From: a virus
Virus record (IMG/VR): IMGVR_UViG_3300022758_000054
Coordinates: 1 to 6,516 of that record
Length of the DNA: 6,516 nt
Direction: 5' to 3' (one strand)
This document shows positions 442 to 6,516 of the stretch, piece by piece. The position numbers and the translations under genes are program-made. A model generated the notes under the pieces. The model was given only the letters and a program-made list of their open reading frames with translations. It had not been told where the DNA came from and made no database searches. Within the stretch, counting starts at the first letter, position 1, and every line of letters starts with the position of its first letter.

Positions 442-2139
442 TCAGTCCTGATAAGAAAAAACACCAAACAAATCATTGACCTTCTTGTGTTTGACCTTAT
501 CCCTACACTTCATCAATGCAGCGGCAGCCAAACGACGAACAAGAGGCAATTCATGGTAAGATTTCTCCTTATCAAGAACAGATCTATTATAACGGAAAGA
601 ATAGTTACGAATCTCAAAGTCTACCAAATCCTTATCATTGGAATCTTCCAAAGTCTGATAGAAATCTACAAGACGGTGGTAATCATAAAAATTCCAAAAA
701 TAAACTATTTTCTCAGAGATTATTCGTAAAAACCTTTCCCGGCAGAAAAGTTCTCCTCCAGGAGTGCCGCTGGACCAGAAGAGTTCCGAGCATCCGTCTG
801 TTGAATATGTTCGAATAAACTTCGAAATTCCGAGAAAAAAGCGGTAGACACGGGACAGACGATGAGCAGCTTCCAAATCAGCACCATCGTACAGACGACA
901 TTCAGAAAGAACGAGAACATCACTATGCGGTAAATTCGCCTGAGGAGAGAGGAAATTCCTATATTCATTTGATTTTCCATAATTATCTACATAATTTAAA
1001 TACTGTTTACAAAAAGACAAAATACTTTGCTTGGAACTTTCGCCAAACGGATCGCAACCTATATCAGCGCATCCGCTACGAATGACCCGTTCGGGCGCTG
1101 TGAACGCAGCAAAAAGTAACTGGTAAATACTCGATGGAGATTTACGAATAGCGTCCGAAAATCGGGGGAATAGTCGAAGGAGATACGGCCATGTAGGTTT
1201 AATTGTGCGAAAATAACCATCGCGTTCAACGCGGACTCCATCAAGGCACTTATCGATAACTTCGTCAATTTCGGCAACTCGTACCTTTCGAGGAAAGAGA
1301 TTTGACTCTGTAAATCCAATGGAATGGAAGGATTTAGGTCGCACCACTTTTGGCATTTGAGTATAAAAGTCGGGTAAAGCGACAAAACTATTAACATACG
1401 ACGCAACATACGAAGCTGCAAATCCTCGCGAGAGTGACGCATCACAACGACCGTAAGACCAAGCCTTAGATACATTTTCACAAACAGTTTGCGAGAATCG
1501 TTCGGAATTGGAAAACAATAACAAGTGCCAATGCGGGCGGAAACTGGTAGGACCGTATTCTGATACAGCGTAGTAACGTAATTTTTCATCCGGGTAATAA
1601 CTTCTTAAACGTTTTAAAAATAAATCAAGGTCACGATTACAAACATAAGGAATCCTATTGGGAACATTATGATTAATCTTGCCAAGAATAGACAAAAGCT
1701 CCTTAGGTTTCATAGGATAAGTAAATCTTATCTCAGGATCCTTGAATATACGCTCAACGGTAGAATTTTTCAACTTGACAGAAGCGGTGCGAGGAACGCT
1801 GCGAAAACCAAAAAGATAAGTATTAGGGTCACCAGCGTCCAAGTCATTAATATCTGGAACGCAGGATACATCCGCAATATCATCCGTACAAAGTTCAACA
1901 AGCGAAACCTTCAAAGTAGGAAGAAAGCAAGGAGCATAAGTAAGAGTAACAAAGTATACATAACGGAATTGAGCAGAATAAGTAGTGAGCAAATTTGTTT
2001 GAATCCCGGAACGACGAAGAATACAAGAGGGGCAAGAGCCACAAGACACAAGAACAGACTCTTGTGTATACTTATTAACAACCGTGCGAGGATTCTGACA
2101 ACGGGTCACTAGCTTATTCTGCAATTCCTTAGTAATCAT
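442..2139 (-). CDS. VP4: Rolling-circle replication initiator protein VP4 (phiX174 A-like, HUH endonuclease)
   Basis: 565 aa. Motif 1 is FVTLTY (aa 63-68). The HUH motif is HWHLLLF (aa 203-209; H203 = nt 1533..1531). The two-tyrosine motif is YVASYVN (Y244 = 1410..1408, Y248 = 1398..1396), which closely resembles the phiX174 A active site YVAKYVNK. There is an N-terminal Cys cluster, C..P...SCGSCPSC. The ATG overlaps the upstream stop as ATGA. Confidence 0.95.
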   Translation of the reverse strand: MITKELQNKLVTRCQNPRTVVNKYTQESVLVSCGSCPSCILRRSGIQTNLLTTYSAQFRYVYFVTLTYAPCFLPTLKVSLVELCTDDIADVSCVPDINDLDAGDPNTYLFGFRSVPRTASVKLKNSTVERIFKDPEIRFTYPMKPKELLSILGKINHNVPNRIPYVCNRDLDLFLKRLRSYYPDEKLRYYAVSEYGPTSFRPHWHLLLFSNSERFSQTVCENVSKAWSYGRCDASLSRGFAASYVASYVNSFVALPDFYTQMPKVVRPKSFHSIGFTESNLFPRKVRVAEIDEVIDKCLDGVRVERDGYFRTIKPTWPYLLRLFPRFSDAIRKSPSSIYQLLFAAFTAPERVIRSGCADIGCDPFGESSKQSILSFCKQYLNYVDNYGKSNEYRNFLSPQANLPHSDVLVLSECRLYDGADLEAAHRLSRVYRFFLGISKFIRTYSTDGCSELFWSSGTPGGELFCRERFLRIISEKIVYFWNFYDYHRLVDFYQTLEDSNDKDLVDFEIRNYSFRYNRSVLDKEKSYHELPLVRRLAAAALMKCRDKVKHKKVNDLFGVFSYQD

Positions 2140-2444
2140 TTTCTATCAGTAAAATTAAGTTCCATTTGACGGGGTTTGCGACCGCGAGCAAAAGAAACAT
2201 GAATGAATGTACGATATTTTATAAGCTGGTCAAATTTAAAGGAAGAACATTTAACCATCGAGAGGAATCCATCAACCGAAAGGTCGACAGGTTTGAGGTC
2301 AACGGCATCACCGGTCAGATGTTGGGAGTTCCTAGAACCGTTACACGCATCATTCTGTGCTACAGTACGGAGAGCGGAAGTAACGGTAAAATGAACATTC
2401 CGACAAAGAAGCCATTCAAGAAATTTCATTAATTCGGGGTTCAT
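2136..2444 (-). CDS. Peptidase M15-like zinc D-Ala-D-Ala carboxypeptidase / cell-wall hydrolase (putative endolysin)
   Basis: 102 aa. The segment TVTSALRT..N...GS.NSQHLTGDAVDL ... YRTFIHVS matches the Peptidase_M15_3/VanY-type signature S.H..G.A.D ... H: H42-x6-D49 plus H82 as candidate Zn ligands. ATG is at 2444..2442. The stop TGA at 2138..2136 overlaps the Rep ATG. No obvious signal peptide. Confidence 0.78.
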   Translation of the reverse strand: MNPELMKFLEWLLCRNVHFTVTSALRTVAQNDACNGSRNSQHLTGDAVDLKPVDLSVDGFLSMVKCSSFKFDQLIKYRTFIHVSFARGRKPRQMELNFTDRK

Positions 2445-2447
2445 GAC

Positions 2448-2537
2448 TTACGAAAAAATTTGGGCAATAGACGTAAGAAGACTGACAGCAGCTGCAATAA
2501 TAGCAGACCAGATTTTAGATTTAGTTTCACTTTTCAT
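2448..2537 (-). CDS. 29-aa single-pass transmembrane peptide (holin-like candidate)
   Basis: My translation is MKSETKSKIWSAIIAAAVSLLTSIAQIFS*. It has a charged N-terminus followed by a 20-residue hydrophobic helix. The stop TAA at 2450..2448 lies 3 nt before the peptidase ATG. Its ATG (2537..2535) sits inside the end of the upstream 57-aa ORF. It is below the ORF-track length cutoff. Confidence 0.5.
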   Translation of the reverse strand: MKSETKSKIWSAIIAAAVSLLTSIAQIFS

Positions 2538-2700
2538 CAGAAGGGGAATTAAAGGTTGAACATGAAGAAACGATAATCAAACAGTCCGAACTAAGAGTAA
2601 AAGAAACAAAATCGGAAATTTCATTAACCGGCACAAGAACAGTCTTGTTCCGATTAGGATCAACTTTGGACTGAATACAACACAAATAAAAATCTTCCAT
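2527..2700 (-). CDS. Hypothetical 57-aa protein, first ORF of the Rep-proximal gene block
   Basis: My translation is MEDFYLCCIQSKVDPNRNKTVLVPVNEISDFVSFTLSSDCLIIVSSCSTFNSPSDEK*. ATG is at 2700..2698 and TGA at 2529..2527, overlapping the next ORF by 11 nt. It is on the coding strand and packed like the neighbouring genes. I recognise no motif. Confidence 0.4.
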   Translation of the reverse strand: MEDFYLCCIQSKVDPNRNKTVLVPVNEISDFVSFTLSSDCLIIVSSCSTFNSPSDEK

Positions 2701-2816
2701 AACTAATAAATATTAAATGTTAAACGATATGACGGGGCGAATATACAAAATAAAATCAATAACCAAAACATATAAGCAAAAAAATACATAAGTTATATGG
2801 GTGGCAGGCTGGTCTG

Positions 2817-2889
2817 TGAGTTTGCGTATATAAGACAAGGGGGAGACTGAAAGCGATGAGGTAAATCGCTTTCCCTCCGGGCAAACTCA
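2817..2889. other. Nested stem-loop element: outer 9-bp stem enclosing an inner 9-bp hairpin
   Basis: The outer stem pairs tgagtttgc (2817..2825) with gcaaactca (2881..2889). The inner hairpin pairs gaaagcgat (2849..2857) with atcgctttc (2865..2873) around a 7-nt loop, gaggtaa. Both stems are perfect complements. Confidence 0.55.
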
Positions 2890-2891
2890 TG

Positions 2892-3054
2892 TAGGCTTCG
2901 CCAAGTTATATCCTTGTATTTCAAGTATTTACAGTGATAAAAAGAGCAGCTCTCCGGGAGATTGCATACGCGCTACAAGCATCAAGATTTTAGACTTCGC
3001 CAAGTTATATACTTGTATTTCAAGTATTTACAGTGATAAAAAGAGCAGCTCTCC
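2892..3054. repeat. 64-nt direct repeat, two copies (2892..2955 and 2991..3054), period 99 nt
   Basis: The unit is tag[g/a]cttcgccaagttatat[c/a]cttgtatttcaagtatttacagtgataaaaagagcagctctcc, with 2 mismatches in 64. Each copy ends in the 16-nt core. Confidence 0.9.
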
Positions 3055-3189
3055 AGAGGCGGAAAAGAGCAGCTCTCCAGAGGCGGAAAAGAACAGCTCT
3101 CCAGACATTCTTTATATTTAAGGTGTTTAACGGCGACGGAAAAGAGCAGCTCTCCGGGAGATCGCATACGCGTTGCAAACATCAAGATC
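2940..3189. repeat. 50-nt direct repeat (2940..2989 and 3140..3189, 200 nt apart) bracketing the array; five copies in all of the core AAAAGAGCAGCTCTCC
   Basis: The unit is aaaagagcagctctccgggagat[t/c]gcatacgcg[c/t]t[a/g]caa[g/a]catcaagat[t/c], with 5 mismatches in 50. Cores start at 2940, 3039, 3063, 3087 (1 mismatch) and 3140. The core contains the palindrome AGAGC-A-GCTCT. Copies 1 and 5 add an overlapping palindrome, TCTCC-G-GGAGA. Confidence 0.9.
3039..3110. repeat. 24-nt tandem repeat, about 2.7 copies (aaaagagcagctctccagaggcgg)
   Basis: Units are at 3039..3062 and 3063..3086 (identical), plus a degenerate third unit at 3087..3110 (aaaagaacagctctccagacattc). Confidence 0.9.
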
Positions 3190-3291
3190 CGAGGAAGGCA
3201 GTACTATAGCCTGACGGCTCTGATTTCAGTCCTAACGTCCCGAAATCCAGGAGGTGCATAACCACGCTACGCGCGGTTGCCAGAAGTTACT

Positions 3292-3331
3292 CCAAACAAC
3301 AAAGCCCGGCGTGTATCACTACAAACCGGGT
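3292..3331 (-). terminator. Weak candidate intrinsic terminator downstream of VP2
   Basis: The minus strand reads ACCCGG-16 nt-CCGGGC followed by TTTGTTGTTTGG. That is a 5-bp G+C stem (3305..3309 with 3326..3330), a long loop and a T-rich tail, beginning about 28 nt after the VP2 stop. Confidence 0.25.
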
Positions 3332-3358
3332 AAGAAAAACGAAAAGAAGCACGGAAGA

Positions 3359-4943: not shown

Positions 4944-6516
4944 TTAGTAAGGTACACCATCACGAGACAAGTTACGGGCAACATAGCAACCAATATAAGA
5001 GTTAACCAACAACTGGTCAGTATCCCAAGTAGAATCAGCATTAACACCGAAAATCGGGTCAAGAACAGAAGGATTGACCTTAAAGAACTTATAGTTCAAG
5101 GCAACCTTAGTTCCAGTATCAGGAGTAGAACCACCGAACCGTGCCCAACCGGAAAGAAGAGACTCGGTAACAGGAGAAACCCAAGATTTAAGAGTAGTAG
5201 TGAACGCCCCGTTGATTACATCAAGCTTGGTTTTCCAATTGAAATAACGGGGATTATATCCGGCATTAAACAAATTGAAAGCGGTAGCAAGCGGAGAGTT
5301 GAAAATCTGGGTCATGGGAAGAACTTCCATACCAATGTTATCAAACTCAGGAATCGGCAAAGACTCAGCATCAGTGACCAACAGCTGCCCGTCCTGACCA
5401 GTAATGGAATAATCAAGAAGAGGAACGGCATGATAAATACACATAACGACACAATGCTCGTCGGTCGTATATGTAAACGAACCATTACCAGCACCTACAC
5501 CCTTACCGGCAATAACAGCAGTATCACCTTCGGCAGCAAGGTTATTATTAACAACTTCACTGATATCAAGGTTACGGGAAATACCACCGATATAGGTGCA
5601 CATATTGGAAAGAGCCTGAGGTAAGTTCACACCAAAATGTTTACGAATCTGCTCACGATAATCAGAATCACCAGACTGGCTGATTTCTTTCCAACGTTGA
5701 AGAGCCTCGGCTTGACGAAGAGCAAGGACAGTAAATTGACTTTGCAAATTTGAAAGATCAACTTGAAGAGTGGAATTAGAAGGAATGACATTACTAGTAG
5801 AAGCGTCAATAGCTGAGAGAGATATCGGAGTAAGAGGAGCATTGTAAGAACCAGTAGTAGCTACTTGAGAAGAAGCAGCAGAGTTCGGACTCTTCAAAAA
5901 TACAGAAGAAGAGATAGTACCCTCAGTATTTGAAACATCAATCACAGCAACATCACCAAACTGAGAATTCGGAAGAACACCCATCAGCATATCCTTGTTC
6001 CAATTACAGTATTTGAGGTCAAACATTGTATCGGATTTCCAATAATCAGAAGTAGTTCCAGGAAGAGAGTCAACAAAAAAAGGTGAAACGCCGGAAAAAT
6101 AATCAACATTATAAGAAGAGGGATTTGAACTTTCCCATTGAGACCAGCGAAAAAAGTCCTGATAAATCTTCTGATAAGCAAGAAGAGGGAATAGATTCAC
6201 ACAATTATTCTGAATATATTGTTGAGTATAACTAACAGCATCATCAGTATTTTTTATAGAAGTAGACCACCAACGATTGCTAGAAGAAGGAGCGTCTTTC
6301 ATAAAGTTACCATAACCAAGATAACTCAACAACTTATAAGCTAAATCAGAACGGGAAAAACCAAAAGCGTTTTTTTTAGCAGAAGAAGCACCCGGAGACC
6401 AAGAATCACCATTCAAATAAACCAAAGCAGAGCCCAAATCGAACAACCTTAAAGACGGCAAATAAGTTCCAAGAGCCAAATTCTGAGTCAAAGACAACGC
6501 CTGAATCTGATTGACG
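4944..6516 (-). CDS. VP1: Major capsid protein VP1 (F-like), C-terminal part; open to the window edge, and 6390..6516 duplicates 1..127
   Basis: The track ORF 4944..6497 begins at a TTG only because the window ends; the frame stays open to 6516. It contains the conserved block FTVLALRQAEALQRWKEISQSGDSDYREQIRKHFGV, typical of Microviridae capsids. The stop TAA is at 4946..4944. Joined to 1..414, the gene is 1,860 nt (619 aa). Confidence 0.95.
   Translation of the reverse strand, partial: VNQIQALSLTQNLALGTYLPSLRLFDLGSALVYLNGDSWSPGASSAKKNAFGFSRSDLAYKLLSYLGYGNFMKDAPSSSNRWWSTSIKNTDDAVSYTQQYIQNNCVNLFPLLAYQKIYQDFFRWSQWESSNPSSYNVDYFSGVSPFFVDSLPGTTSDYWKSDTMFDLKYCNWNKDMLMGVLPNSQFGDVAVIDVSNTEGTISSSVFLKSPNSAASSQVATTGSYNAPLTPISLSAIDASTSNVIPSNSTLQVDLSNLQSQFTVLALRQAEALQRWKEISQSGDSDYREQIRKHFGVNLPQALSNMCTYIGGISRNLDISEVVNNNLAAEGDTAVIAGKGVGAGNGSFTYTTDEHCVVMCIYHAVPLLDYSITGQDGQLLVTDAESLPIPEFDNIGMEVLPMTQIFNSPLATAFNLFNAGYNPRYFNWKTKLDVINGAFTTTLKSWVSPVTESLLSGWARFGGSTPDTGTKVALNYKFFKVNPSVLDPIFGVNADSTWDTDQLLVNSYIGCYVARNLSRDGVPY

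Follow-up and report, generated by a model that had tools for sequence, protein, structure and literature searches.

The stretch analyzed here (the window) is a 6,516-nucleotide (nt) sequence, IMG/VR virus record IMGVR_UViG_3300022758_000054. Its first and last 127 nt (positions 1-127 and 6390-6516) are identical and form a terminal direct repeat; the window is therefore a complete circular microvirus genome of 6,389 nt. Every gene lies on the minus strand, and among them a 29-amino-acid (aa) open reading frame (ORF29, 2448-2537) stands directly 5' of a gene for a 102-aa M15 peptidase (2136-2444). We propose that these two genes form a minimal cassette of a holin-like peptide and an endolysin in a temperate Bacteroides microvirus, a reading to which sequence comparison leads us to give a probability of about 0.5. 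Both genes are under purifying selection, adjacent and always inherited together, and the peptidase carries a metal motif and no export signal.

The ORF29 peptide, MKSETKSKIWSAIIAAAVSLLTSIAQIFS, has a basic N-terminal tail (net charge +2) followed by a 21-residue Ala/Ser/Thr-rich helix that runs to the C terminus (mean Kyte-Doolittle value 1.8 and 48% small residues, by hydropathy calculation only), and it is predicted to be a single-pass membrane peptide. As a caveat, 9 of 17 short ATG-initiated ORFs (25 to 60 aa) on the T-rich coding strand contain a hydrophobic 19-mer, so the hydrophobicity of ORF29 by itself is at chance level. Comparative sequence data establish ORF29 as a genuine, strongly constrained coding gene. 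The peptide was found directly 5' of the peptidase in 60 IMG/VR loci that had been retrieved through the peptidase, and in the 58 genomes aligned for the analysis the frame is intact in all but one. The 50 nucleotide haplotypes reduce to 18 variants at the peptide level; 27 of the 58 peptides match that of the window exactly, while the neighboring proteins differ by 10-30%. Polymorphic sites are distributed 9/3/21 over the three codon positions (chi-square P = 5e-4), and the ratio of nonsynonymous to synonymous substitution rates (dN/dS) is 0.09-0.10 in the ORF29 frame versus 1.2-1.6 in the two other frames. An earlier note on this DNA, made from the letters of the window, had described a 29-aa ORF with a charged N terminus and one helix, and had asked whether it and the 57-aa ORF that precedes it (ORF57) are under purifying selection; both are, with a dN/dS of 0.21 for ORF57.

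Two other frames around ORF29 were considered and rejected. An in-frame upstream extension (58-86 aa, apparently with two transmembrane [TM] segments), open in about half of the relatives, gave a dN/dS of 0.89, and its variation follows the ORF57 frame; an overlapping ORF in an alternative frame (2441-2530) gave 1.6. The synonymous rate (dS) of ORF29 (2451-2537) is 0.28, which is 2-3 times below those of ORF57 (0.66) and the peptidase gene (0.83); neither a stable RNA structure (z = 0.23) nor a coding second frame was found that would account for it. The ORF29 interval is unannotated in GenBank relatives, whose records list the peptidase and the 57-aa gene, and the gene caller skipped it in a Bacteroides prophage where the frame is intact. 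A tblastn search of phage records with the 29-aa peptide returned no match, probably through low-complexity masking. A phmmer search of 1.84 billion representatives with a 30-aa version returned nothing but microvirus ORFs and, as the sole non-microviral match, an unrelated repeat protein, P0258 (771 aa). This protein is built from ~14 copies of F[WF]PALIG[AG][AG]ISLF[SG]S..G(G)NKKRD, Ala/Gly/Ser-rich hydrophobic units with dibasic sites between them, and resembles a processed-peptide precursor; the match is probably compositional convergence.

The second gene encodes a protein of 11.7 kDa with the motifs SQHLTGDAVD and FIHVS, and H42, D49, and H82 lie where the earlier note had placed them. 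It matches PF08291 (Peptidase_M15_3) with an E value of 1.5e-11 and 44.8 bits, above the gathering cut-off of 23.2, as well as the endolysin family phrog_894 (5e-15), which bears out its assignment to M15. The PF08291 match covers residues 19-84, equivalent to profile positions 43-108 only, and so does not span the complete domain (1-108). Compared with its homologues of 130-160 aa in cells and double-stranded DNA (dsDNA) prophages, the microvirus protein is missing ~40-60 N-terminal residues. No signal sequence, signal-anchor-release (SAR) segment, or TM segment was found in the protein (the maximum 19-residue Kyte-Doolittle mean is 0.77), in agreement with the signal peptide having been called absent. 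In a search restricted to one genome per species, no cellular homologue exceeded 45% identity, and the nearest were 30-43% identical. A dN/dS of 0.18, above that of ORF29, indicates purifying selection on the peptidase.

When the single protein was aligned against Protein Data Bank (PDB) sequences, the T5 L-alanyl-D-glutamate endolysin was matched; a profile of 15 divergent microvirus copies matched the Streptomyces albus zinc DD-peptidase (E = 1e-4), the T5 endolysin and, weakly, ChiX. H42 and D49 align on H66 and D73 of the T5 endolysin (2MXZ) and on H154 and D161 of 1LBU, which we take to be zinc ligands of those structures. The motif R...SxHxxGxAxD aligns residue for residue with the T5 endolysin (2MXZ/8P3A), 1LBU, and Serratia ChiX (5OPZ). 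However, only this motif region aligns with the LAS-fold enzymes (E = 1e-4 to 0.03), the N terminus of the window protein is shorter, and its last histidine stands in an H-V-S context and not in H-x-H or D-x-x-H. The residues S23, R26, N31, G36, S40-L43, G45, A47, D49, D72, Q73, I75, H82, and S84 are invariant even among copies that are as little as 28% identical, and the motif set SG[YF]R, SQHLxGEAxD, FDQ, and H[IV]S is common to the bacterial and prophage homologues. H82 is located at the end of the Pfam match, in the H-[IV]-S motif, and outside all alignments to solved structures. Of the three residues that the earlier note had proposed to compare with the zinc ligands, H42 and D49 thus coincide with them by sequence alignment, while a ligand role of H82 and the fold of the protein are suggested by invariance only. 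The profile matches, the ligand alignment, and the invariant motifs indicate a peptidase that looks functional, and we describe the protein as a leaderless, N-terminally shortened M15/LAS zinc peptidase and a putative endolysin.

The two genes are closely coupled in space. In the window the ORF29 stop codon (TAA) is separated from the peptidase ATG by the 3-nt spacer GTC (2445-2447), and the peptidase TGA overlaps the ATG of the replication initiator (Rep) gene as ATGA (2136-2139). These junctions, together with an 11-nt overlap between ORF57 and ORF29, could all be read in the sequence as the earlier note had reported them. Most close relatives share the 3-nt gap between ORF29 and the peptidase gene, a few have gaps of 9-56 nt, and in a distant subclade the peptide gene usually overlaps the peptidase start as ATGA; the 3-nt spacer is consistent with translational coupling. 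Distant relatives whose peptidase is 43-54% identical (among them Dulem viruses, Microvirus mar56 and mar62, and loci L058-L060 and L115) keep a related 26-29-aa peptide at the same position, for instance MNKNNIWKIIIGAVSAALGYILNAIGL. Peptide identity falls to ~30% in this subclade, with the frame and the pattern retained: a short basic N-terminal tail, a Trp at the start of the helix, a 20-23-residue helix extending to the C terminus, and a chain of small-xxx-small pairs are common to both peptide subfamilies.

Co-occurrence was counted over 97 distinct contigs, including a clade without M15 that was recovered by a capsid-based scan. The peptidase, the peptide, and ORF57 are found together in 77 contigs; 14 carry ORF57 and a different, 65-aa protein with neither peptidase nor peptide; one, a gokushovirus-like outlier, has the peptidase only; and five are fragments without the region. 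The peptide is therefore present in 77/77 peptidase-bearing genomes of the lineage and in 0/14 of the M15-less clade. In the outlier, the gokushovirus-type L068, no dedicated TM ORF was found beside the peptidase. The M15-less clade consists of complete 6.2-6.6-kb genomes with capsid proteins ~50% identical and Rep proteins ~32% identical. Rough neighbor-joining trees of the major capsid protein and Rep, calculated without bootstrap and, for the capsid, effectively unrooted, place this clade as sister to the subclade of the window, with the second M15-bearing subclade outside both. From this placement, the peptide and the peptidase appear to have been lost or acquired together, as a unit, and we regard the association of peptide and M15 as suggestive.

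The M15-less clade (L103-L108, L110-L112, and L116-L120) has its own conserved 65-aa ORF in the slot between VP2 and Rep, MKITxQQWIEIIKLISTFIIGVITxLxVQSCT...STKININ, which combines a single hydrophobic helix with an invariant [VI][QH]SC that resembles a lipobox and with a tail rich in Ser and Thr. The protein has no Pfam or PHROG match and could be either a lipoprotein or a one-gene lysis protein in place of the pair. Homology between this protein and ORF29 was considered and rejected (hhalign probability, 0.4%).

ORF57 (2527-2700, 57 aa), which had been counted as the first member of a three-gene module, proved to be separate. It stands directly before Rep in the M15-less clade, and its position before Rep or before the peptide-peptidase pair is conserved; because it is also present where both are absent, it is not part of the pair, and comparative data mark it as a real, lineage-wide gene. 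A two-gene cassette is inserted between ORF57 and Rep. The encoded protein is acidic; its family numbers 3,555 members, all of them unannotated and from contigs of microvirus size only. Its AlphaFold2 model has a beta-beta-alpha-beta fold with a predicted local distance difference test (pLDDT) score of 85. It has no Pfam match; Foldseek searches returned nothing significant from PDB and only uncharacterized microvirus proteins from BFVD.

The following mechanism would account for the arrangement. We infer that ORF29 would insert in the cytoplasmic membrane with its basic tail inside and its helix spanning the bilayer. As the peptide accumulates, it would self-associate through small-xxx-small contacts, and this presumed oligomerization would lead to hole formation and permeabilize the membrane. 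The peptidase, probably translationally coupled to ORF29, would be unable to cross the membrane alone, since it is leaderless; once the membrane is breached it could cut murein peptide stems or cross-links, resulting in cell lysis. The muralytic activity, the bond specificity, the timing of lysis, and the breach of the outer membrane are likewise conjectured in this scheme. As expected of a holin, ORF29 encodes a small protein with at least one TM helix (by hydropathy only), and it adjoins and is co-inherited with the gene of a leaderless endolysin. The term "holin-like" is a functional hypothesis and does not denote family membership: the helix and the coupling described in the earlier note were found, and with them co-occurrence, whereas a charged C-terminal tail, a dual start, and a match to a holin family were not.

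In prophage-like loci of Bacteroidales and others (L124, L127, L131, L132, L133, and L148), the homologous M15 gene typically comes directly after a gene for a small protein with 1-3 TM segments. In L131, L132, L133, and L148 the M15 gene is followed by one for a ~150-170-aa protein that begins with a signal of the lipoprotein type (...LSGC, ...CWGC, ...LAAC) and has a TM segment at its C terminus, a layout like that of a unimolecular spanin. Loci of the order TM gene, M15 gene, and lipoprotein gene represent the canonical holin-endolysin-spanin order. The microvirus pair is a miniature counterpart of the first two genes in this dsDNA-phage layout, with similarly tight spacing and likewise in a Gram-negative host. 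However, the membrane partner has 26-29 aa, one helix, and no C-terminal charged domain, compared with 66-163 aa and 1-3 TM segments in the dsDNA-type loci, and the peptidase has 102 aa compared with 130-160 aa. The microvirus pair also differs in having no spanin-like gene, in showing no sequence similarity in the peptide, and in being carried on a 6.4-kb single-stranded DNA (ssDNA) genome. The cystovirus phi6 pairs a ~42-aa membrane protein, P10, with the endopeptidase P5, and TisB is a 29-aa pore-forming toxin. These are tiny peptides that permeabilize the inner membrane, that of phi6 being paired with a wall peptidase, and they come from different virus realms; their likeness to ORF29 is by analogy only.

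Several observations weigh against the proposed cassette. On the side of the peptide, ORF29 has no charged C-terminal domain (the helix ends in ...IAQIFS, and the charges are N-terminal) and no dual start, having a single Met. No significant match to a holin family was obtained in PHROG (phrog_443, E = 0.13; phrog_689 for the peptide of a relative, E = 0.026) or in Pfam. To our knowledge, 29 residues is smaller than any holin, and one short helix would have to open holes large enough for an 11.7-kDa enzyme; a near-invariant peptide would also fit binding to a conserved host target. One relative, L021, has an intact peptidase gene and a damaged ORF29. In this genome (~3230-3325) codon 4 has changed from GAA to TAA and there is an 8-nt duplication, TCTTCTTA. 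The genome could be defective or misassembled, or the peptide could be dispensable. The objection that the 29-aa ORF might be lost where the peptidase is kept thus applies to this sole damaged relative and to none of the 57 other close relatives. On the side of the enzyme, the N-terminal third of the PF08291 domain is missing, and the AlphaFold2 model is poor (pLDDT 67.9), with low confidence in the active-site region, because its alignment comprised 46 near-identical sequences (all at least 80% identical); with this model, Foldseek found nothing below E = 1 and no meaningful fold match. Furthermore, no component that would disrupt the outer membrane, and nothing spanin-like, was identified in the microvirus. 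The co-occurrence itself reflects few evolutionary events and is weak as statistics.

A more far-reaching version of the cassette reading is put forward tentatively, as somewhat less likely than not. In this version, the 26-29-residue peptide would be the smallest holin yet, a single bare helix gating a minimal endolysin of 102 residues; Bacteroides microviruses would use canonical two-component lysis with no amurin; and lysis genes would be exchangeable in the VP2-Rep slot, where the pair alternates with the 65-aa lipobox membrane protein of the sister clade.

ORF29 might instead be an autonomous lysis or membrane-toxic effector, acting either like an amurin, by inhibition of a conserved protein of envelope biogenesis, or as a depolarizer of the TisB/Hok kind, with the peptidase as an accessory that speeds wall breakdown. 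We consider this unlikely, although it is the alternative to be taken most seriously. Classical microviruses and single-stranded RNA (ssRNA) phages lyse their hosts through one small membrane protein, and an effector acting on a host target would suit the extreme constraint on ORF29, with nearly half of the peptides identical. In addition, the M15-less sister clade has a membrane/lipobox protein in the same slot and no muralytic enzyme, so that in this lineage no more than a membrane protein may be needed. Against these points, ORF29 never occurs without the peptidase in 77 genomes, the two genes are tightly linked by a 3-nt gap or an ATGA overlap, purifying selection also acts on the peptidase, whose metal motif is intact, and no homology to the 65-aa protein was detected. 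In phiX174, the reading frame of protein E is overprinted within gene D; the protein acts by inhibiting MraY and does without a muralytic enzyme. Like the amurins of ssRNA phages, it is a small, membrane-embedded, single-TM lysis protein of a very small phage. ORF29 differs from it in having its own reading frame, in being always paired with a peptidase, and in showing no similarity. Membership of the E-type amurin class was therefore rejected, as the overlap between ORF29 and ORF57 is limited to 11 nt and a peptidase gene follows ORF29 in every case.

Alternatively, the peptide could serve a nonlytic function such as superinfection exclusion, prophage maintenance, or the anchoring of replication or assembly, with the peptidase acting alone or at entry; we find this slightly less probable still. 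Small membrane proteins often act in exclusion, the lineage is temperate, the peptide lacks holin family features, and a leaderless peptidase could in principle be virion-associated. However, nothing in the analysis ties the peptidase to virions, and a nonlytic peptide would not be expected from its adjacency to, coupling with, and strict co-inheritance with an enzyme that has no membrane route of its own. The succession of a small TM gene and an M15 gene in dsDNA-prophage lysis cassettes also argues against this explanation.

It is improbable that ORF29 is untranslated and that the stretch is conserved as DNA or RNA, for instance as a promoter or regulatory element, with the open frame being incidental. 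The reduced dS hints at an extra constraint at the nucleotide level, hydrophobic short ORFs are common on this strand, and ORF29 was omitted both by annotators and by the gene caller. However, the codon periodicity and the low dN/dS, seen in the ORF29 frame only, point to translation, as does the persistence of the frame and the peptide pattern at ~30% identity, and there is neither a stable RNA fold nor a promoter signal above that of shuffled sequences. Least credible is readthrough from ORF29 into the peptidase to give a self-exporting SAR-like enzyme: ORF29 is in frame with the peptidase in the window (TAA GTC ATG) and its Ala/Ser/Thr/Gly-rich helix resembles SAR domains in composition, but spacers of 9, 12, 13, 15, 16, 21, 32, and 56 nt and the ATGA overlap put the two genes in different frames in many relatives, the stop codon is TAA, and no local RNA structure was detectable. 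The identity of a SAR endolysin was rejected accordingly, the helix being a separate ORF ended by TAA whose frame relation to the peptidase is not conserved.

M15 genes of Alpavirinae and gokushoviruses have been proposed as endolysins (Roux et al. 2012, PMC3394797) and listed among "lysis-associated accessory genes" (Kirchberger et al. 2022, PMC9239249). The peptidase as a putative microvirus endolysin is thus already known, in keeping with the sporadic M15-like ORFs mentioned in the earlier note, and the present gene shares with the M15_3 genes of Alpavirinae and Gokushovirinae the PF08291 family, the virus group, the human or animal gut setting, and the proposed role. Five of 11 such genes adjoin an unknown ORF (PMC3394797); the corresponding "unknown ORF" beside the peptidase in GenBank relatives is the 57-aa gene, which is here independent of the peptidase. 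In contrast to the present loci, no membrane peptide between that ORF and the peptidase is described in these papers or in the GenBank records, and the literature searched makes no mention of a membrane partner for a microvirus M15 peptidase, in line with the remark that such a partner is not an established feature. What appears to be new is the membrane partner, conserved but unannotated, together with its strict linkage to the peptidase; neither seems to have been described in the literature searched. A phiX-like inhibitor of peptidoglycan synthesis is reported to be absent from gokushoviruses, and the Alpavirinae were reported to be without a cultured isolate as of 2020 (PMC7062461).

The remaining genes agree with an Alpavirinae-type temperate microvirus, in which the phage of the window is placed by gene content and prophage relatives. 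It has a Phage_F capsid protein (PF02305, 619 aa, running across the window junction), a 160-aa protein that is labeled internal scaffolding in relatives, a pilot protein (362 aa), and a VP4-type replication initiator (Rep, 565 aa, 442-2139; PF23343, 5e-13; phrog_942, 7.5e-37), all encoded on one strand of a ~6-kb circle, with relatives integrated in Bacteroidetes. Rep is long, and replication-initiator profiles match its first ~280 residues only; no family matches its C-terminal half. One close relative is present as a prophage in a 112.7-kb contig (ERZ25414223 NODE_169), where the adjacent GyrA is identical to a protein of Bacteroides (B. uniformis and relatives), and a further copy of the peptidase lies on a record from Bacteroides congonensis; the host is therefore a Gram-negative Bacteroides. 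In locus L155 (7340-13920), the relative sits between a TPR-protein gene and a Usp gene in a Bacteroides contig and is flanked by an imperfect direct repeat of ~26 nt (TATATTAAACAT..TGCTGATATT), possibly a dif-like site.

The 658-nt region 5' of ORF57 (2701-3358) is noncoding, with no conserved ORF, and is presumed to be the promoter or attachment region of the ORF57-ORF29-M15-Rep block. Comparison of the junctions showed that the L155 prophage sequence is split inside the counterpart of this region. It contains a tandem repeat at 3039-3105 (a 24-nt unit in 2.8 copies, AAAAGAGCAGCTCTCCAGAGGCGG on the plus strand), and a direct duplication of ~50 nt was spotted by eye (...TTATCACTGTAAATACTTGAAATACAAG.ATATAACTTGGCGAAG..., minus strand); the repeats may belong to an origin, a promoter, or an attachment region. 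Scans for promoters and terminators gave signals no stronger than those in shuffled sequences. Some relatives have an extra ORF of ~58-60 aa 5' of ORF57 (L155, 7548-7730; L061, 4022-4204; L063, 4249-4425), recorded as a hypothetical protein in GenBank, with no counterpart in the window.

The proposed pair bears on the means by which microviruses outside the phiX174 group bring about lysis. An enzyme without a leader has no way to the wall by itself, and a co-inherited membrane peptide would supply the missing step. ORF29 and the peptidase gene together occupy 399 nt including stop codons, which makes for a simple two-gene experiment. If the holin-endolysin reading is true, it would define how small a holin can be, and ssDNA phages would be able to carry a complete holin-endolysin module in a 6.4-kb genome. 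The pair would also offer a very small lysis cassette for Bacteroides genetics, and genes of fewer than 30 codons would have been systematically overlooked in microvirus annotation.

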